Shown here: positions 867 to 24,674 of the stretch, piece by piece
Layout of the letters: each line of letters opens with the position of its first letter
Position numbering within the stretch: position 1 is the stretch's first letter
Origin: a virus
Virus record (IMG/VR): IMGVR_UViG_3300044940_000144
Location: 11,958 to 75,957 of that record
Reading direction: 5' to 3' (one strand)
Length of the DNA stretch: 64,000 bases
Made by a program: the position numbers and the translations under genes
Notes under the pieces: model-generated
What the model was told of the DNA's origin: nothing
What the model saw: the letters and a program-made list of their open reading frames with translations, nothing else
Databases searched by the model: none

Positions 867-923
867 AGCTTCCCTTAGCCCCCCTAGCTTCCCTTAGCCC
901 CCCTAGCTTCCCTTGGCCCCCCT
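867..923. repeat. 19-nt tandem repeat x3 (AGCTTCCCTTAGCCCCCCT) in a pyrimidine-rich tract
   Basis: Units at 867, 886 and 905, with degenerate copies on both sides. Confidence 0.85.
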
Positions 924-1478
924 AGCGCCCCTTGCTTAGCTTGGCCTTGCGTTTTCGGAGCTCGGTTTGAGCCTGTCGAGAGGCGTACTGCGCCCAGTGC
1001 TGGGACGCAGTACAGGCCAAATAGCAGCGTTTTCCTTGCGTTTCCATCGCCCGGAATCGCCCGCCGTTTCGGCCGAGAGACTCGAACCCGCCCAGGTAAC
1101 GCTTTACCGGGTGGGGGGTAACTCCCCCGCTCGTCTCCCCTGCGCTCGCCTCGCGGCGACGCTCACGGCATGTGTGGCACCCGCCCGCTCTCTCCATTTT
1201 GCGGACGAGCCCACTCTGGGTTTTGTGCCAACTGGGGGTCGTCGCGATGGCCCCCACCGCCCCGGCGGTCCGTTGCGGCTTCCGGTATTGTCGCCCCGGA
1301 CGGCTATGGCACTCCCAGTATCGTTCCGCTGGGCACTACAGACGGCTGGCTGGGAGGAAAGGACGAGGCTACCGTCTAGGTCCGGCCTCCCATGAGCTTG
1401 CGCGTGACCCCCGTAATGCAGCCATACGGCCGAACCGTACCCGCCGGGCCTGTCACGACGCTCACTGTCATGCGCACC

Positions 1479-1508
1479 AGCATAGCACCAAGCCCACCGT
1501 GCTGTAAA
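1479..1508 (-). promoter_or_regulatory. sigma70/SigA-type promoter TTTACA-N18-(TG-c)TATGCT
   Basis: -35 at 1503-1508, -10 at 1479-1484 with extended TG. Confidence 0.65.
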
Positions 1509-9444: not shown

Positions 9445-10439
9445 TACTTGGTTCTCCGCGGGCGGGGAAACGGCGGGAACAGGCCGTTGCCCATGATGTA
9501 CTCCGGGCTGAACGGGTGGGCGGAGTGGTATTCGCTGGGGTCGAGCACATCGGTTGCATCTGCCGCAAGCTCGGTAAAGGCGCGTAGCCGTCGCGCGCCC
9601 ATCCTGCGGTCGATCTCCCGCTCGTAAGGGAAGTACGTCTTGAACCGCTCCAGGTAGACCTTGTTTTCTCCCTCGGAGAGCTCCGCAGCGGTCTTTTTCA
9701 CCATCTCAAGCTCGTTCGGCGAGCCTTCGTGTTCGATCAGCTCATCGAAGAGGGCCGTCGAGATCGACAAAAAGACGGCGTGTATCATGGCGTGCTGCCA
9801 GTTGGACTGCATCTTTTCGAAGTCTTCCAATGAGCGCCCGGTGTGCCAGACCCATATCGCGGGGGTCGCAACCTTCATCGACCACCAGATGCCGATGCGC
9901 GAGTGGGCGCCGGGGCAGTGGCCAAGCTCGTCAGGAAACTCTGCGGCGAGATCATCGAGCTTGTCGATCCACTCAGGCGTGGCGTGCAGGCCGTTGGTCT
10001 CGATCTGGAAGATCGGCAGACTGGGGAGGTCGGCATCCAAGACCCGCTCTGCGACCGCGAGCAGGTGCTCCGGGTACAAAAACGGCTCGCCGTTGGAGAT
10101 GCGGACGATCTTGTGCCCGGTGCGACGGACGACTTGGATCAGCTTGTCGGCGGCCTCGTCGGCGTGCATCCACTTCATCGAGTCCTTGCCCGCCAGCCCG
10201 TAGGTTGACCAGCACTGGTTGCAGGCGAACCCGCAGCCGATGACGTCCGCCGACACTGAACCGCCCAGGTCGGGGTACATCTCCGAACGGCTGCGGATGC
10301 GCCGGTACGGCGCCACCAGCGGATCGCGCTTGGTCGATGCGATGACTTCTTCGGTGTCCACAAGATCCGTTGCGTCGACGTGATCGGACACCAGCTCCCG
10401 GATGTGGGCTTCGTTCGGGAGGTGACGATCGTCGGTCAC
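9444..10439 (-). CDS. radical SAM enzyme
   Basis: GCGFACNQCW (CxxxCxxC), RISNGEP, IETNG. Confidence 0.85.
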   Translation of the reverse strand: MTDDRHLPNEAHIRELVSDHVDATDLVDTEEVIASTKRDPLVAPYRRIRSRSEMYPDLGGSVSADVIGCGFACNQCWSTYGLAGKDSMKWMHADEAADKLIQVVRRTGHKIVRISNGEPFLYPEHLLAVAERVLDADLPSLPIFQIETNGLHATPEWIDKLDDLAAEFPDELGHCPGAHSRIGIWWSMKVATPAIWVWHTGRSLEDFEKMQSNWQHAMIHAVFLSISTALFDELIEHEGSPNELEMVKKTAAELSEGENKVYLERFKTYFPYEREIDRRMGARRLRAFTELAADATDVLDPSEYHSAHPFSPEYIMGNGLFPPFPRPRRTK

Positions 10440-10593
10440 TAGTGCCTCGCTAGTTTCGTCATCAAAGGTTGAGCCCAGCAGGGAGGGGGCACCACTCCCC
10501 TCCCCGCCGGGTCATCGCAAGTCACCCGCGGGGGTAAGGGGGGAACCCCCCGGGGTCTGACCTGCGCTTTCTGCCAGATGCTCGCGCATCGCA

Positions 10594-10944
10594 CTAAGCA
10601 TAGCACCTACCCATGCTCAGTTGACGCGCGCCGCCTCCGGCGATCTTGGACATTTGAATCTCGTTCAGCGACGCCACCGGGGCGCCCAGGACGACGTTGA
10701 CCAGGGGACGATACATGCGGCCGGTATCGAGATTGGCGATCACCAGTGGTAGCCAGCGGCGGTGCACCGACGCCGCCCCGTGCTCGACGAGCGTGGTCAG
10801 GCTTATATCGGAGATGACAGCGCACGCGCCGGACGGCGAGGAGAGCACCATCGCCCACATGGGCGGTGGGTCGTCGCTTGGGTTCGGCTTGACCCCGAAG
10901 TGGACGCATAGATCGCGCAGGCGATCACGTCTGCTCATCGTCAT
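10594..10944 (-). CDS. hypothetical protein
   Basis: AAAGGGGGAACC directly before ATG. Confidence 0.7.
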   Translation of the reverse strand: MTMSRRDRLRDLCVHFGVKPNPSDDPPPMWAMVLSSPSGACAVISDISLTTLVEHGAASVHRRWLPLVIANLDTGRMYRPLVNVVLGAPVASLNEIQMSKIAGGGARQLSMGRCYA

Positions 10945-12136
10945 CGGTTCCCCCTTTCCTTTTTGACATCCTCCCCACGGCTAAGGCCCGGGGATTCCCG
11001 CCTCGGCCTGCACCCTTTCCTCGAAAAGGAGAAGGATGTCTTACGGCGTCAGCAGCGGCAGGGTTGAGACCAGCCCTGGCCAGAATCGCTCTGGCAGCGT
11101 TTCTGTCGCGGTCGCTCACCAGCCCGCAGGCATGGCAGACGAACTCGCGCTTTGCCAGTTCCAACCGCTGCTTGGCTCTCGCTCCACAGTTGGAACAGGT
11201 CATAGTCGTGTAGGCGGGCGGCACCAGCACCACCTTCCGGCCCGCCCGCTCGGCGTGTTCGATGAGGATGCGTTTCGCGACCCCGATGGCGGCGTCCTGA
11301 GCCTTGCGGGCCATCCTGGTCTTGGCGAGGAACGACGGCTTGAAGTCCTCGACGGCGAGCGCCCCGTGGTCGCGCACGACGGACACAGCCCACTTGCGGG
11401 CGGTGTCCTGTCGCTGTCGGACGACTTTCTTGGCAACTTTGGCCGCGTCCTGTTTCGCCTTGCGGTAGCCGACGGACCCCGCCTTGCCCCGCTCTGGCTT
11501 ACGGCGAGCCATCCGTCGCTGGTACTTGGCGAGCGCCTTCGCCGCTTTGCGGGCGTACTGCGGATGCGGAAGGTCGTAGGCGGGGTCGGTGGTGGTGGCG
11601 ATTGTCTTGACGCCCCAGTCGATGCCGATGGCGGCATCCGAATCGGCCATCGGTTCGTCGTTCCGACGGACGACGAAACTGGCGTACCAATGGCCGAGAG
11701 AGTCACGGTACACCCGCACACTGGTCGGTTCGGACGGCAGGTCGCGGGACCACACGACAGGGATGCTCAGCCCACCGGCCAGACGCAGACGCCCATCCTT
11801 GAGCGAGAAGCCGCAGCGCGTGTAGTTGAGACTTGGCATGGTCCTGCGGGAGGACTTGAACTTGCGCCGCCCCTTGCCTTCGGCTCGCTTGGCGCGGAAG
11901 TTCCTCAACTCCTGCTGTTGCACGACGCTGCTACCGGCGCGGAGCCATTCGTGCTCGCGCCGCCATGCGGTCAGGTCACTGTCGCGGACCCATGTGCCCG
12001 TGGTCCGGAGCATGGCGACGGACTGGTTCCACAGCCAGCGGGTGCGGTGCCATTCGGAGATGAGCGCTCGCTCCGCCTTCGCACCGGGGCGCAGACGGTA
12101 CTGGTAGCGCAAGACCGTCCCCACGTATTGGATCAT
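10925..12136 (-). CDS. tnpB: RNA-guided endonuclease TnpB
   Basis: YQYRLRP N-terminus; RuvC GIDWG, AVEDF and DRDRNAA; CSNC/CHAC zinc finger. Alternative leaderless GTG start at 12124. The ORF reads through the right end. Confidence 0.92.
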   Translation of the reverse strand: MIQYVGTVLRYQYRLRPGAKAERALISEWHRTRWLWNQSVAMLRTTGTWVRDSDLTAWRREHEWLRAGSSVVQQQELRNFRAKRAEGKGRRKFKSSRRTMPSLNYTRCGFSLKDGRLRLAGGLSIPVVWSRDLPSEPTSVRVYRDSLGHWYASFVVRRNDEPMADSDAAIGIDWGVKTIATTTDPAYDLPHPQYARKAAKALAKYQRRMARRKPERGKAGSVGYRKAKQDAAKVAKKVVRQRQDTARKWAVSVVRDHGALAVEDFKPSFLAKTRMARKAQDAAIGVAKRILIEHAERAGRKVVLVPPAYTTMTCSNCGARAKQRLELAKREFVCHACGLVSDRDRNAARAILARAGLNPAAADAVRHPSPFRGKGAGRGGNPRALAVGRMSKRKGGTDDDEQT

Positions 12137-12204
12137 ACCAGCGACGCGTGTAGCCCCGATTCCTTCCCATGCCTGAAGGCAGGGGCTTCCTCGGGGGTCA
12201 TCTG
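10963..12204 (-). mobile_element. IS200/IS605-family element, tnpB only (IS1341-like)
   Basis: Left-end hairpin GAAGCCCCTGCCTTCAGGCATGGG after TTTAC; right end GAATCCCC..CCTTAGCCGTGGGGAGGATGTCAA; no tnpA. Confidence 0.85.
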
Positions 12205-12214
12205 GTAAAGCAAG

Positions 12215-12296
12215 TGGGGGCCGAGGGAGTCGAACCCTCATGCCTTGCGGCGCCGGATTTTGAGTCCGGTGCGTATGCCAGTTCCGCCAGACCCCC
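12215..12296 (-). tRNA. tRNA-Leu(CAA), CCA not encoded
   Basis: Acceptor GGGGGTC/GGCCCCC, anticodon arm CCGGA-CTCAAAA-TCCGG, long variable arm, GAGGG-TTCGACT-CCCTC. Confidence 0.95.
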
Positions 12297-12304
12297 GGTG
12301 GCCC

Positions 12305-12595
12305 TTACAGGGCCAGTTGGTCGTTCAAGTAGACGCGTAGCTCTGTTAGCCTGCCATCCGAGTAGCCGAGCGCCAGGTCGTAGATCTCGGCGCCCACACC
12401 GGCTTCGTCCACCGTGATCGCCCCGTAGACGTGGCCGTTGTCATCGGCGCGGTAGGCGACCTCGACATCGTCCCAACCCCAGGTCTTGAGATTGGCGACG
12501 ACCTCCCCGTTGGACGCGATGCCGTTGAGAAGCTCGTCGCCCCGGTTGATCCCGATGGTGCGGACCAACTCGATGAGTTTGACGATCACATTCAT
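12305..12595 (-). CDS. hypothetical protein
   Basis: AGGGGGAACC before ATG 12595. Confidence 0.7.
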   Translation of the reverse strand: MNVIVKLIELVRTIGINRGDELLNGIASNGEVVANLKTWGWDDVEVAYRADDNGHVYGAITVDEAGVGAEIYDLALGYSDGRLTELRVYLNDQLAL

Positions 12596-12658
12596 CGCGG
12601 TTCCCCCTGTGGAGGGGGCTTGAGCCTCCATGCCCAAGCCCCCTCCAGCTCAGATGTC

Positions 12659-13201
12659 CTATGCCGTGGATTCTGCCAGTGCCGTGCGCATCGCTTTGAC
12701 GAAGCGACCATCGGAGGCGACGGACCGAGACCACTCTTTCAGAGTGGCGGTGCCATCGTCCTCACGGGACATCATCGCAGTGATCCCACGCACTTCGTCG
12801 CGGCTGGCCATCGTGATGCAGACCGCCTCGTCCTTCCAGGGCGAGTCACCGATGCTGCCGTACTGCTCGACGATGACCTGCCCGATGTCCTGTTCCGGGA
12901 CACCGGGGTATGCCGCTCGCACCTGGTCGTTGATCTGGACGAACCAGGACGACACGACCATGCCAAGGGCGATGGCCTTCGTGCCGTTGGCGAACTGCGG
13001 GATCAAGACGCGGCACAGGATCTCTTTGCCTTCCTGGCTGTTCATGAACTCCTGCGGGATCGGGAAAACGATGATCTTCATGTTCGAAGACACGACGAAC
13101 AGCACCGGGGCGATGTCATCGTCCCAGTCGGTGAACTGGCCGACGTTTTCCTCGACGCCCTTTTGGATGACCTTTTCCAGGTCGTCTAGCACGCTGGCCA
13201 T
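12659..13201 (-). CDS. hypothetical protein
   Basis: 180 aa ORF coupled to the upstream gene. Confidence 0.75.
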   Translation of the reverse strand: MASVLDDLEKVIQKGVEENVGQFTDWDDDIAPVLFVVSSNMKIIVFPIPQEFMNSQEGKEILCRVLIPQFANGTKAIALGMVVSSWFVQINDQVRAAYPGVPEQDIGQVIVEQYGSIGDSPWKDEAVCITMASRDEVRGITAMMSREDDGTATLKEWSRSVASDGRFVKAMRTALAESTA

Positions 13202-13204
13202 GGC

Positions 13205-13495
13205 CTAGAGCCTCTGGAGAAGCGTCTCGCCGTACTCGTCGACCGAGGCGAGGAACCGCTTTTCGCCGCCGACGATCGCAATGACGATCCAGGCCAGCCA
13301 CCAAACTCCGAACGTGATCAGGCCGATCACAAAGTGGAGCAGGTGGTTGACCCTGTGACCCTTCACCAGCACCGCGTCGTAGTCGTTCTGCGACTCGATG
13401 CGGGCTCCTTGGACGACCTGGGTTCTGATGACCCTGGAGAGCGCTTCCTTGCGCTGCCAAGCCGTAGCCTGCGGCCTTGGCGTGTCTGTGCTCAT
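13205..13495 (-). CDS. small membrane protein
   Basis: NHLLHFVIGLITFGVWWLAWI hydrophobic segment; shared start motif. Confidence 0.8.
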   Translation of the reverse strand: MSTDTPRPQATAWQRKEALSRVIRTQVVQGARIESQNDYDAVLVKGHRVNHLLHFVIGLITFGVWWLAWIVIAIVGGEKRFLASVDEYGETLLQRL

Positions 13496-13644
13496 GGGTG
13501 GTTCCCCCTTTATCGGTGTTCTCCAATGGCCTGGCATCCCCCGGCAGAAAGCCGGGTTATCGGTTCACGGTTCAACGGCCCGGCCAACGCCAAGCCTCCC
13601 CGCGCAGTCACGGCGTGCCCCGCCGCCATGCGAGAGCATAGCTA

Positions 13645-13691
13645 GTGCAGTGTAGTCCTAGTCCTCGTTCGCCTCCTCGGGAACGACGATC
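13645..13691. repeat. 47-bp direct repeat, copy 1
   Basis: 46/47 identical to 14664-14710; contains TACACT on the minus strand. Confidence 0.9.
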
Positions 13692-13695
13692 AATC

Positions 13696-13749
13696 GCGTT
13701 TCGTCTCTGCCGTGAGACTCATCAGGCGGGCGGCATCAGCCCGCGACGC
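13696..13749 (-). ncRNA. hammerhead ribozyme type III (canonical)
   Basis: GCGUC^GCGGGC-ugaugcc-GCCCGC CUGAUGA GUCUC-acggca-GAGAC GAAA CGC; loops complementary (UGCC/GGCA); predicted cut 13745/13744. Confidence 0.93.
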
Positions 13750-13776
13750 CGGGGGCACCGAAGTGCCCCCCGCCTT

Positions 13777-14148
13777 TTACCGGATGCCACTGACCACCCA
13801 GTCAAGCATGGCTTGGACCTGATAGTCCGGGACCAGGACCGACGCGGGCGCCGCCGACGGATTGCCGGGATCGTGGATCGTGACCAGAAGGACACGGCCC
13901 GGGTTGTCGCGGATCCACGCAAAGACCTCGGGATACTCCTTCTCCATGCTTTCTGGTGGCTGCACACTATCCGGAGCCGACAAGTCGATCTGAGTGATCT
14001 GAAGGCACTCAGACCCAAGCAGGTCTGAGATGACCGCCACCCGGGAGTCGTCATTGACTCCTTTCGACTCCCACAGCGTGGTGAGAACCAGACCGTTCTG
14101 ACCAGACGATGCGCGCTTTTCGCGCCGAGGACCGATTCGGAATCCCAT
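13777..14148 (-). CDS. hypothetical protein, distant paralog of 14161-14547
   Basis: Shared P....WI/VxxNP.R..L motif. Confidence 0.7.
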   Translation of the reverse strand: MGFRIGPRREKRASSGQNGLVLTTLWESKGVNDDSRVAVISDLLGSECLQITQIDLSAPDSVQPPESMEKEYPEVFAWIRDNPGRVLLVTIHDPGNPSAAPASVLVPDYQVQAMLDWVVSGIR

Positions 14149-14160
14149 GGATCAATCCTT

Positions 14161-14547
14161 TCATCCGGCCATGATCCAGCCGATCAGGTCCCCGAGCTTT
14201 CCGGTGACGGCATCTGCGTCCAGGAACTTGGCGGTGGAGTCCTCCAGGCGCTCGCCCTTGTGGACCCACAGGGCCGCCTCAAGCAGTTGCTTGATGTCCA
14301 GGCAGCAGACAACTTGCGTCCCGTCTCCGGCCTCGACCACCAGCATCGCCGTCCGGTTGGGGTTGGCCTTCACCCAATCGATCAGATCGGGGTGGTCGCT
14401 GATGATCTCCCGCGGAACCTGCTCGTCGTCGTCGATGCGCAGGCTGAACAGCCCCCACGAGAAGTCTCCCGTGACCTCAAGGCCGTGGGCCATGCGATCG
14501 TCGTCCGAGACCTGGGCCAGCAGCAGCGGTTTCGGTTCGTAGCTCAT
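14161..14547 (-). CDS. hypothetical protein
   Basis: AAAGGGGGAACC before ATG. Confidence 0.8.
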   Translation of the reverse strand: MSYEPKPLLLAQVSDDDRMAHGLEVTGDFSWGLFSLRIDDDEQVPREIISDHPDLIDWVKANPNRTAMLVVEAGDGTQVVCCLDIKQLLEAALWVHKGERLEDSTAKFLDADAVTGKLGDLIGWIMAG

Positions 14548-14580
14548 TGGTTCCCCCTTTCATCGGTGCGTGCACGAAAT

Positions 14581-14638
14581 GGCGTTTCGGCCCTCGATTA
14601 GGCCATCATTCAGGCCGGGGAGATACCCCGACGACGCC
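14581..14638 (-). ncRNA. hammerhead ribozyme type III with core insertions
   Basis: GGCGUC^GUCGGGG-uaucu-CCCCGGC CUGAAUGA U GGCC-uaaucgag-GGCC GAAA CGCC; predicted cut 14633/14632. Confidence 0.8.
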
Positions 14639-14663
14639 CCCGGGCGCCGGAGCGCCCGGGTTC

Positions 14664-14710
14664 GTGCAGTGTAGTCCTAGTCCTCGTTCGCCTCGTCGGG
14701 AACGACGATC
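14664..14710. repeat. 47-bp direct repeat, copy 2 (3' end of the AAA gene)
   Basis: Matches 13645-13691. Confidence 0.9.
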
Positions 14711-16218
14711 GAGCCGAACACGGTGTCGAAGCGGTCGCGCACCTGCGCGCCCTGAACCTGCGACTTGACCTGCCGGGTGACCAGCTCGCGCATGGCCAGG
14801 TCGATCGTCGGCAGACGCTCGCCCTCGCCAGCGTTCAGCATCAGCTGAAGCTGGCCGCGCAGGCCGTTGGCCGCGTTGACGAAGTCCTGCGTCGTCAGCA
14901 CGTCCGGGCGCCCGCCCGTCCGGGTGACCGCGTAGCGGACGGCCCGGTCGATCGCCTCCTTGCAGAAGGCGGGCGTGTAGCCTGACATGGCCGAGTAAAT
15001 CGCCTCGAAGTCGAGCTTTGGGGCGAGCATGTCGGCCGGTATGACCGAGCGGATCAGGTCGCAGACCCCGTCCAGGTCGAGCGCGCCGAAGTGGATGGCG
15101 GCGTCCAGACGTCCCGGACGCATCATCCCCTTGTGGATGCGGTCGGCGTGGTTGGTGGTCATGACGATCATCAGCTCGGTGCCCTTCGCGGTGATCCCGT
15201 CGAAGATGTCGAGCAGGCGGGTGACGTTGTCGGACTCCCCGTTCTGGGCGATCGTATCGACGTCCTCGAAGAACACGACGGCGGGCTGGTAGAGCCGGGC
15301 CGTCGACACCACCGTGTCCAGGTCGTCCTTGCCCGGACGGCAGTAGATAAAGGTCCAGCCCTCCTCGACCGCAACTTGCGCGGTCAGGAAGGCCGCTAGC
15401 GTCTTGCCGGTGCCGAAGTCGCCCTCCAGCAGGACGGCGCGCTTCAGCGGGACCTTCAGCTCGCGCAAGATGTCCGCGTGGCGCAGCGGGGTCCACACGT
15501 TGGCGGCCAGCTGCTCACGGACGTCTTGCGAGTAGATGACCCGGTCGGGGTCGACCCCGGTGAGGTCGATGAACTCCGGCTCGGTCTGCCCGTCGATGGC
15601 CGCGCCCTTGTAGATCGAGTTGGAGGCCAGCTCCTGCTCGACCAACTTGAACAGGCCCTCGACGTGGCCGCGGAACTTGCGCGGCGCGTCGATCACCAGC
15701 CGGAACAAGGGGCCGTAGACGTAGTCGTACTTCTCGGTCGTGTGCATCACGCCCTCGAAGATCGGCACCTTGATCTTGCCCCACGGAACCTGCTCGGTGG
15801 CGTCCACGCCGACCGAGATGGTCCGCAGCTCCGGCGGGTACTGCCCGAAGAACGAGGACTGCGCCTTCTGGTGCCCGGTCGTGCCGAAGACCCGCTTGAG
15901 GGCCTTCGACAGCGCTCGCGCGCCGTCCAGCGGCCGGTATCGGAAGATCCGGCTGAACCGGGTCTCCTCCTCCTGCTGCTCGATGTGCGACTCCAGGAAG
16001 TTGATGACCCCGCGAAGGTCGCCCCGCATCGTCTCGGGGAAGATGTACTTCTGCCCCTCGAAGTGCAGGTTGTCCTCGGTCACCAGCTGTCCGCCGAGCT
16101 TAGCAAGCGTGTCCAGCAGGTCACGCTCGATGCGCTTGGTGGACGTCGGCGTCCTGACGGTTTTCTTCGAGGACGCCGAGACGTCCTCCTCCGCGGTGGT
16201 GATCGTGTCGTCAGACAT
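14677..16218 (-). CDS. AAA+ ATPase
   Basis: GDFGTGKT, FFEDVD, TTN and RPGRLD. Confidence 0.9.
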   Translation of the reverse strand: MSDDTITTAEEDVSASSKKTVRTPTSTKRIERDLLDTLAKLGGQLVTEDNLHFEGQKYIFPETMRGDLRGVINFLESHIEQQEEETRFSRIFRYRPLDGARALSKALKRVFGTTGHQKAQSSFFGQYPPELRTISVGVDATEQVPWGKIKVPIFEGVMHTTEKYDYVYGPLFRLVIDAPRKFRGHVEGLFKLVEQELASNSIYKGAAIDGQTEPEFIDLTGVDPDRVIYSQDVREQLAANVWTPLRHADILRELKVPLKRAVLLEGDFGTGKTLAAFLTAQVAVEEGWTFIYCRPGKDDLDTVVSTARLYQPAVVFFEDVDTIAQNGESDNVTRLLDIFDGITAKGTELMIVMTTNHADRIHKGMMRPGRLDAAIHFGALDLDGVCDLIRSVIPADMLAPKLDFEAIYSAMSGYTPAFCKEAIDRAVRYAVTRTGGRPDVLTTQDFVNAANGLRGQLQLMLNAGEGERLPTIDLAMRELVTRQVKSQVQGAQVRDRFDTVFGSIVVPDEANED

Positions 16219-16255
16219 AGATTGTTCCCCCCTTTAGGGTGTCGTGTTTGCCCAG

Positions 16256-16342
16256 CCTGATGGCTGGTGAGAACCCCTGCCTTTCGCAGGAGCTCTCATC
16301 AACCACCGTCAGGGCATGGGGGTGGCTCAAGACCACCCCCAT
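16256..16342 (-). promoter_or_regulatory. two intergenic stem-loops (possible RNase III-type processing site)
   Basis: Long imperfect hairpin at 16256-16313 and a GC hairpin at 16316-16342. Confidence 0.55.
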
Positions 16343-16357
16343 ACACCCGATACAGCC

Positions 16358-16822
16358 CTAGCTGCTAAGCAGCGCTAGGGCGGCATCGACCAGCGCGATA
16401 GCCTGGTTCTCGCCGGTCAGGACATCGTCGTTGTACGCTTCCACCAGACCGCGGCCATCGCCATCGGCACGGACGAAGCCGGTGTCGATGATGGCTTGGC
16501 ACAGAGCGCGCTCGGCCTCCTTCACCGGGTCTGGCGTGGAGTCGTCGTCCATGTACGTCGCATTCGACGTATCGACTCCGGTCACCAGGCCGAGCATGCC
16601 CTCAAGGCATGCTGCGCAAAAGACATCGCCCGAGTCGGGCGTGACCTCCATCGGGTTGCGGACCGCGAACTCATGGTCCTCCCCCTCGAAGGAGCGCACG
16701 ATCAGGTAATCGTTCCTGGTCCAGGCGATCTGACTGGATTCGTACAGCTCACGAATGCGCTGGAGAATCTCCGGCGCAGATGCGTGTCGCACGCACCCGA
16801 CGATGTCGGTCGTGACGGTCAT
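16358..16822 (-). CDS. hypothetical protein
   Basis: Shared start motif; 154 aa. Confidence 0.8.
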   Translation of the reverse strand: MTVTTDIVGCVRHASAPEILQRIRELYESSQIAWTRNDYLIVRSFEGEDHEFAVRNPMEVTPDSGDVFCAACLEGMLGLVTGVDTSNATYMDDDSTPDPVKEAERALCQAIIDTGFVRADGDGRGLVEAYNDDVLTGENQAIALVDAALALLSS

Positions 16823-16893
16823 ATGTGGTTCCCCCTTGTGTGGGTTTTCGATGTCCAGCCCTTCGTTATGGGCTGGGCGGCCTAAGCCACTTT

Positions 16894-16961
16894 GGGCTAC
16901 CGCTTCCCGGACGTCGGTGACGTCCGGGATTCATGCCTGCCCAGGGCAATCGTCAGGCGGC
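16894..16961 (-). ncRNA. hammerhead-like type I element with a variant core
   Basis: GCCGC CUGACGA U UGCC-cugggca-GGCA U GAAU CCCGGACGUC..GACGUCCGGG AA GCGGU AGCCC; same scaffold as the three type I copies, with compensatory changes. Confidence 0.7.
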
Positions 16962-19229
16962 TTACCGCTGATGACGACTGACCAGATGCGCGACCGTCGC
17001 GCGCATGCCGTCCTCAGCGTTCGACACCTCACCGTCGGTAGCGGCGTCAACCACAGCGGCCTTGCCCGAGAGCACTGCCTCCATGTCGGTGTCGATGGAG
17101 TCCTGGCACAGCAGCCAGTAGACGTTCACCATCTCGGCCGTTTGACCGATCCGGTGAACCCGGTCCTCGGCCTGTCGCATGTCCTTGGGCGTCCAGCCCA
17201 GTTCCAGAAACGCGACGTGCGACGCCGCGTGCAGGGTGAACCCTGCCTGCCCGGCCATGAGGCTGACGACGATCAGCCGCGTGTCCGGGTCGTTCTGGAA
17301 CCGCTGCACGGACGCATCGTTGGCGTCGTTAGCGCCTCCGATGACCCGCACCGCGCCCGGGAAGGCCTTGTAGAGCGCCTCCTGGGCCTCGCGGTGGTGG
17401 GCGAACAGCACCAGCTTTTCATCGCTGGACTCCAGGAACTCCTTCGTCCACTCGATGGCGTCGCGCACCTTGCCTTTCGCCGCCAGGCGACGAAGGGCGG
17501 TGAGCCGCGCCAGTGCTTCCGCTTGCAGCACCCTGCCGGGGTCGTAGCCGTTGGCAAGCAGCCACGCCACGAAGTCACGTTCGGCAAGCTCGTATTCGGC
17601 CCGATTCGTCAGGTCGACGTCGATGACCGAACGTAGCTTGGGCGGCAGGTCAGGCATGACCTGAGCCTTCGTGCGCCGCACGTAGCAGGATGACCGGAGC
17701 CGCTGATTGAGCTCCTCAAGGTTCGCGGCACCGCCGTATGTCGTGCCCCACTTGCTGTAGATGGGCTCGCAATAGCGGTTCTTGAACTGCCTGGGGCCAC
17801 CGAACTCGGCGATCCGCCCCATCATCTTGAGAAGCGGGACAAGCTCCACCGGCCGGTTGACGACCGGGGTGCCCGTCAAAAGCAGGACGTTTTCGACCTG
17901 CTTGGAGAGCCACAAAAGCGCACGGGTGCGCTTTGCGTTCTCATTTTTGGCGTAGTGGGCCTCGTCCACGACGAGCATCTTGGGCTGGATCTTCGCAAGC
18001 GCTTCGATCCAGCCTGCGGGCTCGCGCGTCCGGGAGCCGGGCACGGCGTGGAGGTCTCCGAGGATGTCGTAGTTGACGATGACGACGTCCGCGTCAGCCA
18101 CCAAGCCGTAGTCCGGCTTTTTGCCCGCCAGAACGGCGATGTTCAGGCCGGGCATCCACTTGTTGATCTCGCGCTCCCAGTTCCGCTTCAGAGCGGCCGG
18201 GCACACGATGACCAACGGCGCGGCATCCAGATACCACGCCACGCCGAGAGCCTGGAGGGTTTTCCCCAGGCCCATCTCATCGGCGATGAGCACGCCGCCA
18301 GAGGCAAGCCTCTTGATGGCGTACGCGACCCCTGCCCGCTGAAAGCCGAACAGGGACTCGCCCTCGGGGCCGAAGCCGTCGAGGTCAACGACCGCATCAG
18401 TGGCCATGGATTCCTCGATCGAGGTCTCCCGGTCCGCCTGCTGATCGACGAACGAAATCGCCTCATTAGAGACGTCCCATCCGTGACGCAGGGCGTATGC
18501 GACAAGCTCCGGACCGTTCAGGGTGCTGACTTCCCAGATCCGGTTCACCTTGTTCCAGCGCCGCCCCTGCAGATTCCGAAGGAACGTAAGGTTCACTTCG
18601 AAGTCGGGGTGGCCCGGGGTCAGGTACACTGCGAAGGTCTTGCCGTCGCTGTCCAGATCAACCGCCGCAGGAACGATCTCATGCGGCGGCGGGGCCGACG
18701 CAATGTACTCGTCGGCCTTGTCGGTCAGCTTGAACGAGTGCTTCTTGGCGAACTCCGCGACTGCCGAAGCAGAACTCAGCGGAACGCGGTTGAAGCGCCC
18801 GTCCCAATGGCGACCTGGCAACGTCCGGACATCGGTAACGAGATCGGCGTCGTAGCGGAATGCGATGACGAACTCATCGCCTTCCACGTCGATCAGCTTG
18901 GACGACTGCAGAGCTTTTTCCCGAAGCACCTTGCGTCCCGTTGCCTGCATGCGCTCGCGCCCGTAGTAGGTGCTCGCGACCTGGCCCGGGGGCTCGATGG
19001 CATCAAGATTGATCCCGGCGTCGGACAGCTGACGACGGTAGTGGCGAAGCATGGAATATGCCTCCCACGTCTCCTCGTCCGACCACGTGCCCGGGTCGGA
19101 CGCTGCCAGACCGTGGCCGAACGAGGCGTCGGGCTTGGAGTACCCTTGCCCGTCCTCGGATTCGGCCCAGTCGCACCGTGACGCCAGGTAACTGGCGGCC
19201 CGATGCAGAACGGTCCTTGTATCCGTCAT
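16962..19229 (-). CDS. SNF2-family (SMARCAL1/HARP-like) helicase
   Basis: ADEMGLGKT, DEAH, LTGTP, QAEDRVHRIGQ; N-terminal GRHWDG/GRRWN repeats. Confidence 0.92.
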   Translation of the reverse strand: MTDTRTVLHRAASYLASRCDWAESEDGQGYSKPDASFGHGLAASDPGTWSDEETWEAYSMLRHYRRQLSDAGINLDAIEPPGQVASTYYGRERMQATGRKVLREKALQSSKLIDVEGDEFVIAFRYDADLVTDVRTLPGRHWDGRFNRVPLSSASAVAEFAKKHSFKLTDKADEYIASAPPPHEIVPAAVDLDSDGKTFAVYLTPGHPDFEVNLTFLRNLQGRRWNKVNRIWEVSTLNGPELVAYALRHGWDVSNEAISFVDQQADRETSIEESMATDAVVDLDGFGPEGESLFGFQRAGVAYAIKRLASGGVLIADEMGLGKTLQALGVAWYLDAAPLVIVCPAALKRNWEREINKWMPGLNIAVLAGKKPDYGLVADADVVIVNYDILGDLHAVPGSRTREPAGWIEALAKIQPKMLVVDEAHYAKNENAKRTRALLWLSKQVENVLLLTGTPVVNRPVELVPLLKMMGRIAEFGGPRQFKNRYCEPIYSKWGTTYGGAANLEELNQRLRSSCYVRRTKAQVMPDLPPKLRSVIDVDLTNRAEYELAERDFVAWLLANGYDPGRVLQAEALARLTALRRLAAKGKVRDAIEWTKEFLESSDEKLVLFAHHREAQEALYKAFPGAVRVIGGANDANDASVQRFQNDPDTRLIVVSLMAGQAGFTLHAASHVAFLELGWTPKDMRQAEDRVHRIGQTAEMVNVYWLLCQDSIDTDMEAVLSGKAAVVDAATDGEVSNAEDGMRATVAHLVSRHQR

Positions 19230-19259
19230 GGTCCCCCCTTGTTGTGGTGTACGGTAGGC

Positions 19260-19323
19260 GAGCTACCGCGACCTCCCTTTGCAGGGAGGTTTCGGCCTTG
19301 CTCAAGGGCCATCGTCAGGCGGC
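19260..19323 (-). ncRNA. hammerhead ribozyme type I with pseudoknot (B1)
   Basis: GCCGC CUGACGA U GGCC-cuugagcaa-GGCC GAAA CCUCCCU-gcaa-AGGGAGG UC^GCGGU AGCUC; predicted cut 19270/19269. Confidence 0.9.
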
Positions 19324-19341
19324 ATGTAGCTTGATTCCACT

Positions 19342-19560
19342 TCAAGAATCGTCGCCTTTCCTGAGGACGAGCCGCTGCCCCCGGCCGAGGCCGAGGGAGC
19401 ATTCGAAGTAGTCGAAGCACGCTTTGCACAGATACCCCCAGGAACCGCCAGTGGCGGGAATGCGGGCATCTGCGTATGCCTCGCCGTGGGCGGCGTCGAT
19501 GTCGCAGAACGGGATCCTCTCGACGAGGATCGTGTTCGTGGACTTGCCAGGCTCCGACAT
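19342..19560 (-). CDS. small Cys-containing phage protein
   Basis: A.ADA....GSWGYLCKACF...LGLGRGQ motif; shared start motif. Confidence 0.8.
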   Translation of the reverse strand: MSEPGKSTNTILVERIPFCDIDAAHGEAYADARIPATGGSWGYLCKACFDYFECSLGLGRGQRLVLRKGDDS

Positions 19561-19584
19561 GATTCCCCCTTTGGTGCGTTCTCC

Positions 19585-19647
19585 CGCCTCCGTGCGACTC
19601 GTCAGGCCCCGTCCTGGGGCGACGCCCCCCTAGGGGGGCGTTTCGTT
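19585..19647 (-). ncRNA. hammerhead ribozyme type II (A1)
   Basis: AAC GAAA CGCCCCCC-ua-GGGGGGCG UC^GCCCC-aggac-GGGGC CUGACGA GUCGCACGGAGGCG; predicted cut 19621/19620. Confidence 0.88.
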
Positions 19648-19654
19648 CTTGTGT

Positions 19655-20056
19655 CTAGTAGTCCGCAGGCAGCATGGCCGTGTAGAAACCGGCCTCGTTC
19701 TGGACGAACCACACCCGCTCCGACCGGTCGGGCAGCCAGGACGTCAGCAGATAGCCGTCTTGCTTGTCCTCGGTCATCACCGCCTTATCGGCGGTGACTC
19801 TCAAGACGAGCGACGCAAGCGCACGGCGCACCTGCTCCGGCATGTCCACGCCGACCGTTTTGTCGATGCACTTATCGATCTTGCCCATCAGGTGGGACGT
19901 CGCCCTGGTGACGACGCTCCGCGCCACCGGCCACGGAGCGTTTCGCAGGAACACGCCCCAATCGGTGCAGTTGATGAGCACGCCCTCGTCAAGGGCTACC
20001 TCGTCCGAGTAGAACGAATAGATGACGGGTATGTCATCGAACGGGTCGTCGGACAT
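19655..20056 (-). CDS. DUF6573-like hypothetical protein
   Basis: VIYSFY...ALDEGVL N-terminus and TAMLPADY C-terminus. Confidence 0.65.
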   Translation of the reverse strand: MSDDPFDDIPVIYSFYSDEVALDEGVLINCTDWGVFLRNAPWPVARSVVTRATSHLMGKIDKCIDKTVGVDMPEQVRRALASLVLRVTADKAVMTEDKQDGYLLTSWLPDRSERVWFVQNEAGFYTAMLPADY

Positions 20057-20105
20057 TGTTTGTCCCCCCTTTTTGGTTGTGTGCGTTCCCATAATGCAGT
20101 AGCGC

Positions 20106-20168
20106 GAGCTACCGCGACCCCCCGCCAGGGGGGGTTTCGGCCTTGCTCAAGGGCCATCGTCAGGCGGC
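20106..20168 (-). ncRNA. hammerhead ribozyme type I with pseudoknot (B2)
   Basis: Same core as B1 with a different stem III; predicted cut 20116/20115. Confidence 0.9.
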
Positions 20169-20172
20169 GTCG

Positions 20173-20442
20173 CTAAGACTCGTCCGATTGCCAGTACTCC
20201 CCGGAGTTGTGCTGGAAGACCCCCTCGGAGGTGTCAGGCACATACTCGCTCGGGTCCATCACCACGCGGGCCAGGACCTTGAAATCGCCGGAGATGTACC
20301 CGCGCTCCCGGGCCTTGCGAAGGCCCTTGAGCAGGTGCTCCACGGCGGCCTTGCCGTAGCCGTTGTGGACGTCGAAACCGTCGGCGTAGTCGCCGACGCG
20401 CTCGATGGTGACCGAGTAGCTGTACACGGTGTCGTCGCTCAC
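20173..20442 (-). CDS. hypothetical protein, paralog of 20547-20804
   Basis: GTG start after AAGGGGGGACC; SDDTVY...ARERGYISGD. Confidence 0.8.
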   Translation of the reverse strand: MSDDTVYSYSVTIERVGDYADGFDVHNGYGKAAVEHLLKGLRKARERGYISGDFKVLARVVMDPSEYVPDTSEGVFQHNSGEYWQSDES

Positions 20443-20475
20443 CCTTGGTCCCCCCTTGTGTGGTTTTTCGCTTTT

Positions 20476-20539
20476 CGCCTCCGTGCGACTCGTCAGGCCC
20501 CGTCCTGGGGCGACGCCCCCCCTAGGGAGGCGTTTCGTT
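20476..20539 (-). ncRNA. hammerhead ribozyme type II (A2)
   Basis: Same architecture as A1; predicted cut 20512/20511. Confidence 0.88.
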
Positions 20540-20546
20540 TCGCGGG

Positions 20547-20804
20547 CTACATCTTCATCCACCGGTAGCTGTCCTCGAACTGGCCCATCGCGGGCTCCAG
20601 GTAGTCGTCCGGGTCGGTGTACACCGCGCGGGACCGGACCCGGATGTCGCCAACGATGTAGCCACGGTCGCGGGCCTCTTGGAACTCCCGGAGGAGCTGC
20701 TCGGCCGCGCCCTTGGCAGTGCCGTCGTGGTGCTCGCGACCGTCCTGATCATCGCCGACCCGCACGACGTGCAGCAGGTAGCGGTAGACAGTGTCGTCGC
20801 TCAC
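20547..20804 (-). CDS. hypothetical protein, paralog of 20173-20442
   Basis: SDDTVY...ARDRGYIVGD. Confidence 0.8.
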   Translation of the reverse strand: MSDDTVYRYLLHVVRVGDDQDGREHHDGTAKGAAEQLLREFQEARDRGYIVGDIRVRSRAVYTDPDDYLEPAMGQFEDSYRWMKM

Positions 20805-20840
20805 GTTGGTTCCCCCTTCGTAGTGATGATGCAGTAGCGC

Positions 20841-20903
20841 GAGCTACCGCGACCCCCCGCCAGGGGGGGTTTCGGCCTTGCTCAAGGGCCATCGTCAGGC
20901 GGC
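20841..20903 (-). ncRNA. hammerhead ribozyme type I with pseudoknot (B3)
   Basis: Essentially identical to B2; predicted cut 20851/20850. Confidence 0.9.
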
Positions 20904-20905
20904 TT

Positions 20906-21364
20906 TTAGCGTCCGGAGCGCGCTCGGCGCCGATCCTCGTACTCGTCCACGGGGTGGCGAACGATGCGGCGCTCGTCGTCCAGGTCGTAGAGGCTGACCG
21001 GCGAGCACGCCGGGTGCCAGGTCTCGCCACCGCCGTAGGCGATGGTGTGGCCACTGGCGAACTGCTTACCGCAGGAGCGGCAGTGGCCGGGGTACCTCGC
21101 CGTTATCAGCTTGACCGGGCGGACCACGTTCTGGTCGGCCTCGCCAGCGGCGCGCACGAGCTCGCGCATCGCGGCCTCCAGGGCGGCGATGTGGCGCTTG
21201 TGCGAGGCAATCTCCTCAGCCTGACGCTCAATGACGTCGGCCATGTTGAAGATCACGTCGTCGAGCGACCTTACCTTCGCATCGACGTTGGCGAGCGCGC
21301 AGTCGACGGTGTCGAGCTTCTCAGCGAGCGACGCGACCGTCGGACGCACAACAGTAGTACCCAT
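20906..21364 (-). CDS. coiled-coil plus zinc-finger protein
   Basis: Heptad-rich N-terminus; ARYPGHCRSCG...WHPAC. Confidence 0.8.
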   Translation of the reverse strand: MGTTVVRPTVASLAEKLDTVDCALANVDAKVRSLDDVIFNMADVIERQAEEIASHKRHIAALEAAMRELVRAAGEADQNVVRPVKLITARYPGHCRSCGKQFASGHTIAYGGGETWHPACSPVSLYDLDDERRIVRHPVDEYEDRRRARSGR

Positions 21365-21391
21365 GGTTCCCCCTTGTGTGTTCCCGCTTCC

Positions 21392-21455
21392 CGCCTCCGT
21401 GCGACTCGTCAGGCCCCATCCTGGGGCGACGCCCCCAATAGAGGGGCGTTTCGTT
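21392..21455 (-). ncRNA. hammerhead ribozyme type II (A3)
   Basis: Core intact, stems I and III vary; predicted cut 21428/21427. Confidence 0.88.
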
Positions 21456-21461
21456 CGCGGG

Positions 21462-21695
21462 CTAGACGATTTTGGCGTCGTCCGGCGTGCGGCGGCGAAC
21501 CCAGACGTCGAACTGCTCGACTCCTGAGCAGTTACGGGCCTTCAGGCTGAAGCCGCTAGATGTGCCATCGCCGTAGTGAATCTTCGATAGCACGCGGCCG
21601 TCGGAGCACAGGACATAGGTCGTACTGACCCCGGATCCGTACTCGACCCGCCTACGGGCGACCTCAGTCGCGCCGCGAGCACTGATCTTCGCCAT
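21462..21695 (-). CDS. hypothetical protein
   Basis: Shared start motif; 77 aa. Confidence 0.8.
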   Translation of the reverse strand: MAKISARGATEVARRRVEYGSGVSTTYVLCSDGRVLSKIHYGDGTSSGFSLKARNCSGVEQFDVWVRRRTPDDAKIV

Positions 21696-21726
21696 CGTTC
21701 CCCCCTTGTAGTGCGTTCCCCATCAT

Positions 21727-21794
21727 CGCCTTCCGTGCGACTCATCAGGCCCCAATCCATAGGGCGACGCTCCCCTGACGGGGAGCGTTTCGTT
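21727..21794 (-). ncRNA. hammerhead ribozyme type II (A4)
   Basis: CUGAUGA core; stem III CGCUCCCC-guca-GGGGAGCG (covarying); predicted cut 21766/21765. Confidence 0.88.
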
Positions 21795-21800
21795 TAGGGA

Positions 21801-22679
21801 CTACTGACGCCGGAGCGTCTTGCGCGGCCCGCGCTTGGTCTGGACGACCTCGGGCTCGGCCTCGGCCTTCGCCTCCGGCTCGGCCTTCGCCTCCGGCTCG
21901 GTCCGGGCCCCGACGGGCTTGTTCTTGCCGTTGACCCCGACGGACACCTTGAGAGTGCCGGTGGGGTTCTCCGTCGCCGGAGCCTCGCTGACGGCCTCGG
22001 CCTTGTCCGCCGCGTGCTTCTCAGCGAACCCATCGATGACCTTCTGCAGGGCGGACTTCTCCTTGTCCAGCTCGCGAAGCTGGGACTGGTAGTCGTTCGC
22101 CTGCTGCTCGGTCTTCATGTGCTCGATGAGCGTTGACATCGCCGAGAACACGAAGATCACGTCGGACGACAGGCCGGGCATGACCCGCTCGACCGCCTGC
22201 GCGACGGCGTTGCGGAAGGGGTCGGTGACCTTCCGACGGCCGACCATGACGTCGACCTCGTACATGGCGTAGGCCATCACCATCATCCCGAACGCGAAGG
22301 CGTCGCGCGCCTTCGAGACGTGGGCGATCTTCTCCGACGCCGTCATCCGCGTCGGCCGCTGGAAGGCGCTCCCGCCGACGTGCTGGGTCAGGATCTCGAC
22401 CGCCGCCTTGAACTGGGTCGTGAGAATCTCCCGGTCCAGCTTCGGCATGTCGAGGATCGACCCGTCTTTGAACGGGTTCGCGGCCTCCTCGGCGATCGTC
22501 GCCACCACGTCGAGGAACTCGGCGAACTGGGCCGAGTTTTCGGTCGTGGTGTGCTCCGCGCCGCCGAAGACGTGCTCAATCACGTCGTCCTTGGTCATCT
22601 TGCCGATCGCGTCGAGAAGGTCGCCCTCCTCGGTGGGGATCAGGTCGACCTTGCCGGGACGCTTGTAGGACGTGCTCAT
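21801..22679 (-). CDS. hypothetical protein, first gene of the early operon
   Basis: 292 aa with a coiled coil and EAKAEP repeats; shared start motif. Confidence 0.85.
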   Translation of the reverse strand: MSTSYKRPGKVDLIPTEEGDLLDAIGKMTKDDVIEHVFGGAEHTTTENSAQFAEFLDVVATIAEEAANPFKDGSILDMPKLDREILTTQFKAAVEILTQHVGGSAFQRPTRMTASEKIAHVSKARDAFAFGMMVMAYAMYEVDVMVGRRKVTDPFRNAVAQAVERVMPGLSSDVIFVFSAMSTLIEHMKTEQQANDYQSQLRELDKEKSALQKVIDGFAEKHAADKAEAVSEAPATENPTGTLKVSVGVNGKNKPVGARTEPEAKAEPEAKAEAEPEVVQTKRGPRKTLRRQ

Positions 22680-22706
22680 GGGGTTCCCCCTTTTGGGTGT
22701 GTGTTT

Positions 22707-22772
22707 TGCCTCCGTGCGACTCGTCAGGCCCCGTCATAGGGCAACACCCCCCCGGCGGGGGGGTGTTTCGTT
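22707..22772 (-). ncRNA. hammerhead ribozyme type II (A5), GUU cleavage triplet
   Basis: GAAA CACCCCCCC..GGGGGGGUG UU^GCCC..GGGC CUGACGA G; predicted cut 22743/22742. Confidence 0.85.
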
Positions 22773-23156
22773 TGTGGACCGCCCCGAAGGACGTCCACAC
22801 ACACACACACACATAAAGGGTAGGGAACCGATATTTATCGCCTCACTGCACCCAATCCCGTCCGGGGACGGGCAGCGTGGCACGGACAGGGTCCAGTATG
22901 TACGCTGGAACCGAGTGTCGCCAGGGCAGGGGGTCCACAGGACTAACGCACGCGCACGCGTGCGTGACCCTGCATGCTGAGCCCCTCGCGAACGCGCGTC
23001 GCACGCGACGCGCGCGCCAACTTCGAGCCCTCCCTGACCTGCGACCGCCGCGCATAAGCACTCCGTGCGACGCGAGTCCAACTCGCCGCCCGCGCGACCC
23101 CGACGTTCGTGCCCGCGCGACCGCCGCAGCAACCGCGCGTCCGAAATGACACTTCC

Positions 23157-23183
23157 ATGCTAGCACCCCCCATCATGCAATGT

Positions 23184-23186
<3 letters not shown>
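23157..23186 (-). promoter_or_regulatory. strong sigma70-type promoter TTGACA-N18-(TG-c)TAGCAT
   Basis: Perfect -35 at 23181-23186; -10 at 23157-23162. Confidence 0.8.
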
Positions 23187-23599
<413 letters not shown>

Positions 23600-23614
23600 T
23601 TGCCGCCTGAGTGC

Positions 23615-23722
23615 CGGCTACCCCCCCCCGGGGGGGCCGCTACCGCCCCCCGGGGGGGCCGCTACCGCCCCCCGGGGGGGCTACCGCCACGAAGCCCCCC
23701 GCCGGGGAACCGGCGGCTACCG
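23615..23722. repeat. GCTACC repeats with C6-9/G7 palindromes
   Basis: GCTACC(G)CCCCCCGGGGGGG repeated about three times, plus further GCTACC copies. Confidence 0.85.
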
Positions 23723-24289
23723 CATGGGTGCCACCGAGCCCGTCCCGGTCTCCCAGGACAGCAAAAACACCTGGCAGTCGACCACGTCCACCGTGCGCGC
23801 GGACACGATGACGCGGGAGATTTCACGGCGCTTGATCCAACGCTTGGTGACGCTCATGCGGACGATCTGGACGTCGTCCTTCCAGGCGTGCTGATTGAGC
23901 GCGTCCATGACGAGCTTGGCGGCGTTGTCCAAGTCGGGCTTGGTCGCGTACGGATGAGGGAAGCGCTTACCGGACGCCGACAGCGCCCCGGACGACAGCG
24001 TATGCGACCCCGGACGCCGCAGGCAGACAGTGATATCGACCTCGATCGGCTTGTCCTGCCCCAAAAAACACGCCCCGGCGCGTCTCCAAGCCGTCTGGAT
24101 CATCCGTTCGGCGATCTTGGTCCGGTCGCTGGTGCGCGTGTACACGCGGCCGCTGCTGCTAATGCTGAACCGCGGCCGCTCCTTGGTCGGGGCGTAGCGG
24201 TTCGAGTAAGGGTCCTTGGTACCCGCGTTCAGCCCGCCTGGGCCGTGAATGGGGATATCGAACTGGAAGTCACTGACGAGTCTGGTCAT
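23717..24289 (-). CDS. rusA: RusA-family Holliday junction resolvase
   Basis: KERPRF, KPDLDNAAKLVMDALN, W.DD.QI. Confidence 0.9.
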   Translation of the reverse strand: MTRLVSDFQFDIPIHGPGGLNAGTKDPYSNRYAPTKERPRFSISSSGRVYTRTSDRTKIAERMIQTAWRRAGACFLGQDKPIEVDITVCLRRPGSHTLSSGALSASGKRFPHPYATKPDLDNAAKLVMDALNQHAWKDDVQIVRMSVTKRWIKRREISRVIVSARTVDVVDCQVFLLSWETGTGSVAPMR

Positions 24290-24674
24290 GGCTGGGTGGC
24301 TTCCACCTGTCGTCCTTATCCGGATGATCGCGCAGGATCCCGGCGATGGCCAAGGCGTGGAAAACCAAGTGCCCGTAGTGAGCCATGCCGGACTCCGGGT
24401 CGATGTCCTCGCCACGGGCGATCGCGGTCAGATGGCGAAACGCAGAGGCGACCGACAACGACACCGGGTAGCCCTTGCGCCAGTTCTGGGGCGTGTACTT
24501 GGAAGCCCCATACCCGTACACCCGTGCGACCTCGTCCATGAGGTCCCACGGGATCAGATGGTACGCCTCAGGCTTGGCGTCCTTCATAGCGCCCGTATCG
24601 GGATCGGTGTAGCGGATCTCGGCCAGCTGCTGCTGGGCCAGATCGGCGGCGTTGGTGATCTTGCGCACCGTCAA
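24270..24674 (-). CDS. DUF5664 dATP/dGTP diphosphohydrolase-like protein
   Basis: LIP...VARVYGYGASKY..NWRKG...RHL...GEDIDPESG..H. Confidence 0.85.
   Translation of the reverse strand: MTVRKITNAADLAQQQLAEIRYTDPDTGAMKDAKPEAYHLIPWDLMDEVARVYGYGASKYTPQNWRKGYPVSLSVASAFRHLTAIARGEDIDPESGMAHYGHLVFHALAIAGILRDHPDKDDRWKPPSHDQTRQ

Follow-up and report, generated by a model that had tools for sequence, protein, structure and literature searches.

Genomic context of the leader

The stretch of DNA analyzed here (hereafter the window; 64,000 nucleotides) comprises bases 11958-75957 of a complete virus record of 75,957 bp that carries 111-bp direct terminal repeats. The DNA of this phage was found in metagenome runs from hot springs and microbial mats, and all genes in the window are oriented on the minus strand. 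In the direction of transcription, the locus presents a candidate RusA-like gene, a set of 22-nt hairpin repeats, a (TGGC)n array, a run of G and the promoter P3, and beyond these lie a long leader, a hammerhead motif termed A5 and the first gene of an operon (Table 1). The gene ending near 23720 may be RusA-like, as judged by a PDLDN motif spotted by eye. Insulation, curvature and slippage are possible roles of the (TGGC)n array and the G7/C7 repeats.

Judged from the consensus match of P3 alone, transcription would start near 23150. The TGCTA that precedes the -10 element is common to three promoters in the genome, P3 among them. Elsewhere in the window, a promoter of the form TTTACA..TGCTATGCT at 1508-1479 (-) drives more than 500 nt without an obvious gene. 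In the region 870-1508 (-), the Rfam EGFOA RNA motif was matched at 1225-1074 with 47.5 bits, against a threshold of 37.7, and tandem GCUAGGGGGGCUAAGGGAA repeats are located near 920-870 (-), in the near-geneless stretch behind this promoter.

Searches for relatives of the locus returned little. No homologs of the gene-1 protein were detectable in viral contigs or in a set of 5.8 billion proteins, and one PHROG of unknown function was weakly matched. A blastn search with positions 21000-24600 gave no match amongst phage records, and DNA patterns of the hammerhead tail motif, searched in viral, metagenome and genome contigs, gave nothing but chance matches in coding or non-ribozyme sequence. 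Relatives of the phage helicase were 28-33% identical and came without an Rfam hammerhead. Additionally, three DNA runs on a single sample yielded contigs in which the leader is identical, with neither variants nor a change in microsatellite length. Among the sequencing runs listed as containing the locus, none was an RNA run.

Table 1. Features of the locus and of the predicted helix across A5, with positions numbered in the window.
Feature	Position	Strand	Description
Candidate RusA-like gene	ends near 23720	(-)	PDLDN motif; upstream of promoter P3
Three 22-nt repeats	within 23198-23681		each a G7/C7 hairpin; upstream of the (TGGC)n array
(TGGC)n tetranucleotide array	23591-23198		~100 units; upstream of P3 (directly to ~50 nt)
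Promoter P3, sigma-70-type	23186-23157	(-)	TTGACA-18-TGcTAGCAT, 10/12 matches, TG before -10
Non-coding leader, ~407 nt	23150-22743	(-)	predicted 5' product of A5; ends in the 9-bp stem III hairpin
Exact repeat GGUCGCGCGGGC	23122-23111, 23099-23088	(-)	two copies 23 nt apart
Putative clamp, 5' strand	22829-22803	(-)	antisense of start motif: GGUUCCC, UAC bulge, CCUUU, UG, (GU)4
(GU)9 microsatellite	22813-22796	(-)	the single one of its kind in the 76-kb genome
UUCG-loop hairpin	22799-22773	(-)	between clamp and ribozyme; no counterpart at the other four type II copies
Type II hammerhead A5	22773-22711	(-)	RF02276 Hammerhead_II, 26.5 bits, E 0.029
Putative clamp, 3' strand	22704-22682	(-)	(AC)4, CC, AAAGGGGGAACC: CA tract and gene 1 Shine-Dalgarno block
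Gene 1 of the operon	21801-22679	(-)	292 aa; AUG at 22679
Predicted helix, segment 1	22829-22823 x 22682-22688		7 pairs
Predicted helix, segment 2	22819-22815 x 22689-22693		5 pairs
Predicted helix, segment 3	22813-22812 x 22694-22695		2 pairs
Predicted helix, segment 4	22810-22803 x 22697-22704		8 pairs

Hammerhead A5 and its paralogs

Past P3, the operon contains five type II hammerheads (Rfam RF02276 at 26.5-33 bits) and three type I hammerheads that were recognized by eye. The scores of all five type II copies, 26.5 bits for A5 and 28.6-33 bits for its four paralogs, fall below the RF02276 gathering score of 37 bits. The parts of A5 follow one another in the order GAAA, 9-bp stem III, GUU cut site, stem I, CUGACGA and the tail UCGCACGGAGGC. 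The conserved core is complete (CUGACGA, GAAA and GUU, with U as H17); stem III opens with the A15.1-U16.1 pair and carries a GCC loop, and stem I, GCCC(U)/(G)GGGC, is short. Stems I and III are loop-closed, as type II requires, and stem II consists of AC/GU alone and is then open. The cut at the GUU triplet is predicted to fall at 22743|22742.

A5 has the lowest Rfam score among the five type II copies and carries the weaker GUU triplet, and in A5 alone the mini-hairpin of the tail is weakened, with GCAA where the other copies have GCGR. In the alignment, stem III shows a compensatory change from G-C to A-U in A5 relative to the four paralogs, and A4 shows another; the hammerhead fold thus appears to have been maintained in these copies. 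From the sequence, we infer that A5 is an active ribozyme, and its all-GC stems I and III would fit a thermophilic setting. Between loop I (UAUGAC) and the tail, no pseudoknot helix of at least 4 bp was seen. The tail itself is invariant across the type II copies and includes a canonical GGAGG. In all five type II copies (19589-22773), a GCCU overlapping the core at C3-U4 can base-pair with the AGGC in the tail, as seen in a minimum free energy (MFE) fold, and this pairing possibly represents an inactive alternative fold.

A non-coding leader

The first-pass annotation of this DNA had described an ORF-free leader of about 400 nt. A non-coding leader of about that length is indeed present, but it is not free of ORFs, as mechanical reading frames occur in it that carry no coding signal. 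Their codon log-likelihoods range from -0.7 to 0.03 per codon, compared with 0.3-1.1 in phage genes, and the GC content at codon positions 1/2/3 of the three ORFs lying wholly inside the leader is nearly flat (~0.67-0.76), compared with 0.63/0.47/0.83 in genes. No Rfam family matched the body of the leader. The leader had also been called hairpin-rich, which does not go beyond chance: its folding z-score is -1.64, and 4 of 100 shuffled sequences fold equally well. Similarly, the 12-mer GGUCGCGCGGGC, noted earlier as a repeat, is present twice, but the repetition is not beyond chance, with two matches at up to one mismatch in the whole window against 3.3 expected.

Three other candidate features were considered. 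A plus-strand gene behind the inverted motif, with no ATG, GTG or TTG start nearby and a coding score of -0.27, is rejected. An upstream ORF starting at the AUG at 22814 comes without a Shine-Dalgarno (SD) sequence and was judged unlikely. A decayed sixth hammerhead in the leader is not supported, its sole trace being CGCGUCGCACGGAG at 23061-23074 (-), which matches the type II tail motif at 13 of 14 positions and scores 23, weakly above shuffles (18 +/- 2.4).

The antisense tract and the predicted helix across A5

The complementarity reported in the first-pass annotation was recovered in full. The antisense tract CGGUUCCCUACCCUUUAUGUGUGUG lies at 22830-22797 (-), and its target ACACACACCCAAAAGGGGGAACC at 22704-22682 (-), directly before the AUG of gene 1. 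The start motif had also been described as common to several start sites, and AAGGGGGAACC does occur 13 times with at most one mismatch, compared with 0.97 occurrences expected. GGTTCCC occurs eight times on the minus strand of the genome. An SD-like sequence within the leader, AGGGAGGG at ~23035-23028 (-), is a predicted partner of the tract in the free leader at 65 °C and may possibly serve as an internal decoy for it.

Folding of 186-nt and 501-nt transcripts, by MFE as well as by partition function, produced an identical 22-bp helix between the tract and the start block of gene 1. This helix is broken by two bulges, of 3 nt and 1 nt, and by a 1x1 loop, and its pair probabilities range from 0.5 to 1.0, most of them being 0.74-1.0 and one shared pair having 0.52. 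It spans the CA tract and the entire SD block and ends 2 nt short of the AUG. Ten nucleotides of the (GU)9 microsatellite pair in the predicted fold with the AC tract of the ribosome-binding site (RBS) region, and six lengthen the next hairpin. The helix encloses the UUCG hairpin and A5, with a gap of 3-4 nt to the ribozyme domain at either end; it therefore occupies the side on which stem II of a type II hammerhead is open, and forms the closing helix there, a point absent from the first-pass annotation. The folding used here follows the nearest-neighbor model and ignores the tertiary structure of the hammerhead, and in these folds C11.1 and A11.2 were paired with the GU repeat and not with G10.1 and U10.2.

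Specificity of the predicted masking at the start of gene 1

The SD sequence of gene 1 is predicted to be paired before cleavage, inside the helix of the ribozyme domain, with 22829-22815 as its partner. The unpaired probability of its core was 0.00-0.02, compared with 0.17-0.68 at the other 14 start sites bearing the motif, and gene 1 was the sole fully masked site among the 15 when these were compared in two sequence contexts and at two temperatures (37 and 65 °C). When the upstream 200 nt were dinucleotide-shuffled 100 times, no shuffle gave equal masking at either temperature, and the shuffles yielded values of 0.36 +/- 0.11 (37 °C) and 0.42 +/- 0.08 (65 °C). A test based on duplex energy was marginal, as the tract and its target reached -33.5 kcal/mol compared with -27.8 +/- 2.9 kcal/mol for dinucleotide shuffles, 46 of 1000 of which were as good (p ~0.05). 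Two other loci in the window match or beat the tract as duplex partners of the gene-1 target.

The marginal energy test and the comparable complementarity at these two loci would be in keeping with a tract that has no function, being either a (GT)n grown by slippage beside a chance GGTTCCC or the relic of an inverted duplication of the start region. The region is also rich in simple repeats (i.e., the (TGGC)n array), and the locus is known from a single genome, the searches having found no relatives that would lend covariation support to the clamp. However, the three matching segments occur in the right order and with the right spacing to form one continuous helix exactly around the ribozyme, and masking of this kind was met in none of the shuffles and at none of the 14 paralogous sites. 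Altogether, we regard a tract devoid of function as improbable.

A long closing helix was found in A5 alone. A search at the four remaining type II copies turned up no closing helix masking the SD sequence; the helices there have 0-8 bp and leave the SD sequence free. A5 is, moreover, the sole type II copy without a translated gene before it and the sole one with a defective tail hairpin, and its helix abuts the ribozyme domain. These features would also suit a folding scaffold or insulator, in which the helix stands in for the missing stem II and the weak A5 tail hairpin and prevents the ribozyme from misfolding with the GC-rich 400-nt leader. Masking of the RBS would then be a side effect, either lifted by RNase III or helicases of the host or simply keeping gene 1 expression low; 22 imperfect base pairs fall in the size range of RNase III substrates, and the lambda N leader provides a precedent. 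A scaffold need not reach the SD sequence, however, and the extent of the helix coincides with the CA tract plus the SD block, up to its end before the AUG; likewise, the other four copies work, if at all, with their short closing helices. We consider a role as scaffold alone unlikely.

A putative cis clamp and its release on cutting

As the best explanation, we propose, with slightly less than even confidence, that the antisense tract is one strand of a cis clamp across A5, which would close the ribozyme domain and mask the first RBS, with release on cutting. In the primary P3 transcript, 22829-22803 would pair with the CA tract and SD block of gene 1 (22704-22682), and the resulting helix would both pull the ends of the ribozyme domain together within the long untranslated leader and conceal the first ribosome-binding site. 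Self-cleavage by A5 would convert this one-molecule clamp into a two-molecule duplex, which should be far weaker at the temperature at which a hot-spring host probably grows. Cutting, together with decay of the leader, would then expose the RBS on an mRNA with a 5'-OH end, from which gene 1 could presumably be translated.

The first-pass annotation had likewise considered that the first RBS is sequestered in cis until cleavage. Masking in cis is strongly predicted and specific, but release on cleavage would not be automatic, and at 37 °C the products are predicted to stay bound (-20.1 kcal/mol, with effectively no dissociation). The predicted binding of the products drops to -13.1 kcal/mol at 60 °C (Kd ~2.5 nM) and to -10.8 kcal/mol at 70 °C (Kd ~0.14 uM). 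Over the same 60-70 °C range, the SD arm of the uncut RNA is still 0.82-0.90 paired, and the SD sequence of the free 3' product is ~0.55 unpaired. Given the weak binding of the products at 60-70 °C and the origin of the phage DNA from a hot-spring mat, release on cutting is plausible, and an RBS that is masked until the RNA is cut would be thermodynamically reasonable if the temperature of the host is hot-spring-like.

Possible action of the leader in trans

Two classes of RBS were recognized in the window. In the cistrons of the P3 unit (10944-22679) and in the gene at 25749, the site is AAGGGGG(G)AAC(C), which in many cases follows a CA-rich tract, and the structural and late genes above 26000 have GGAGG-type sites, as far as crude start calls can tell. 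As the motif is confined to the P3 unit and one gene, an RNA carrying the anti-motif could in principle discriminate between the two classes. The first-pass annotation had put forward that the leader works as a timer, an sRNA that represses all early cistrons as it accumulates. Once released, the leader would pair with the AAGGGGG(G)AAC(C) blocks and shut the P3-unit cistrons together. Its ends would be capped by a 5' hairpin and by the stem III hairpin with its cyclic phosphate, and the late genes with GGAGG-type sites would escape.

The thermodynamic predictions were mixed for this trans action. The tract forms duplexes with 22 motif sites at -14 to -31 kcal/mol (median ~-25), compared with -14.3 +/- 4.1 kcal/mol and a 1st percentile of -25.7 for random 38-nt windows. 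When the leader was co-folded with the start regions, the SD sequence was paired with 22813-22829 in nearly every cistron, and five targets were bound at -18.6 to -26.3 kcal/mol. The start regions at 14559, 20818, 20071 and 16234 rank highest among the predicted targets. Predicted Kd values from nM to 0.1 uM at 60-70 °C would make binding dependent on concentration, and a second perfect anti-motif, GGUUCCCCCCUU, is located towards the apex of a highly stable hairpin past the last gene bearing the motif. On the other hand, binding energies that take accessibility into account span -5 to -26 kcal/mol, and about half of the targets fall within the controls (-9.7 +/- 3.5, minimum -16.8). In the free leader the tract is just 0.3-0.45 unpaired, neither locked in local structure, which would speak against the first-pass reading, nor fully exposed, and it has internal partners there that include AGGGAGGG; every leader molecule comes with one copy of its best-placed target, the one in cis; and relatives in which the pairing could be followed were not found. 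Repression of other cistrons by the leader is thermodynamically possible according to these models, and it can coexist with the cis clamp. We rate it as possible but secondary, and quite unlikely as the explanation of the tract.

The second anti-motif belongs to a non-coding gap past the last motif gene (10436-10600, minus strand), for which folding predicts a pair of highly stable hairpins (MFE -87.1 kcal/mol, z -4.5), the first of which displays UUCCCCCCU as its apical loop. Here, GGUUCCCCCCUU (10547-10536) is complementary to AAGGGGGGAACC at 12 of 12 positions, and no other sequence in the window forms a better duplex with the gene-1 start region (-35.4 kcal/mol). Just upstream of the hairpins, TGCTATGCT at 10605-10597 provides an extended -10 element identical to that of promoter P2. 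These hairpins may constitute a terminator or a second anti-RBS RNA.

A combined reading would make the leader a ribozyme-released regulator that clamps its own cistron and then accumulates and rebinds the start block of all cistrons in the unit, perhaps helped by the anti-motif hairpin at 10547-10536. We consider this reading improbable. If it were true, the phage would possess an RNA-only switch from early to late translation, an RNA equivalent of the T4 RegA protein, set by ribozyme kinetics and temperature.

Comparison with known systems

The leader of the lambda N gene is the classical case of an early-gene RBS that is occluded by leader structure and relieved through processing by host RNase III. 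The arrangement proposed here resembles it in having a long untranslated leader before the first early gene, an occluded RBS and relief by RNA processing. It differs in that a self-cleaving ribozyme would take the place of RNase III and of the autoregulation by nut and N, and the two leaders have no sequence relation. For action in trans, the T4 RegA protein and the S. aureus RNAs RNAIII and RsaE, which are anti-SD sRNAs with C-rich loops, exemplify one regulator that governs many RBSs. A trans-acting leader would likewise recognize a feature common to many ribosome-binding sites. Unlike RegA, which is a protein, and unlike the sRNAs with their short C-rich loops, the putative trans regulator would rely on a 27-nt tract that is in part hidden within a leader of 407 nt.

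Since 2011 it has been known that hammerheads can cluster between the genes of phages, and what role they play was left open (PMC3088659). In prophages such clusters flank single genes, and the haloviruses HF1/HF2 carry a hammerhead 13 nt upstream of their first early gene (Perreault et al. 2011, PMC3088659). Type II members can have a stem II of just one or two pairs, and most of them have a pseudoknot between loop I and the 3' tail (PMC3088659); type II hammerheads cleave in vivo in Desulfovibrio (PMC8782182). Consistent with these systems, the phage studied here carries hammerheads of different types between the genes of one transcription unit, a hammerhead directly before the first early gene, as in HF1/HF2, and type II copies with a very short stem II. 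Unlike them, it has a predicted anti-RBS strand and a putative leader clamp, which are not described there, and the loop I-tail pseudoknot is not evident. The clamp offers a hypothesis for the role of such clusters that can be tested by mutation, in which cutting, temperature and decay of the leader would jointly gate translation.

The closest parallel to the proposed clamp comes from engineered switches in which the SD sequence is hidden in a stem of a hammerhead or twister ribozyme, where expression rises 5- to 100-fold when the ribozyme is active (Felletti et al. 2016, PMC5052635). As in those designs, the SD sequence of gene 1 is predicted to form one strand of a helix of a self-cleaving ribozyme in the 5' UTR, and if the clamp operates as proposed, it would be the naturally occurring form of a layout at which synthetic biology arrived on its own. 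In contrast to the engineered switches, the putative phage clamp is natural and has no aptamer; its predicted helix is long (22 bp) and lies outside the two-bp stem II of a type II hammerhead; and its release after cutting is predicted at high temperature alone.
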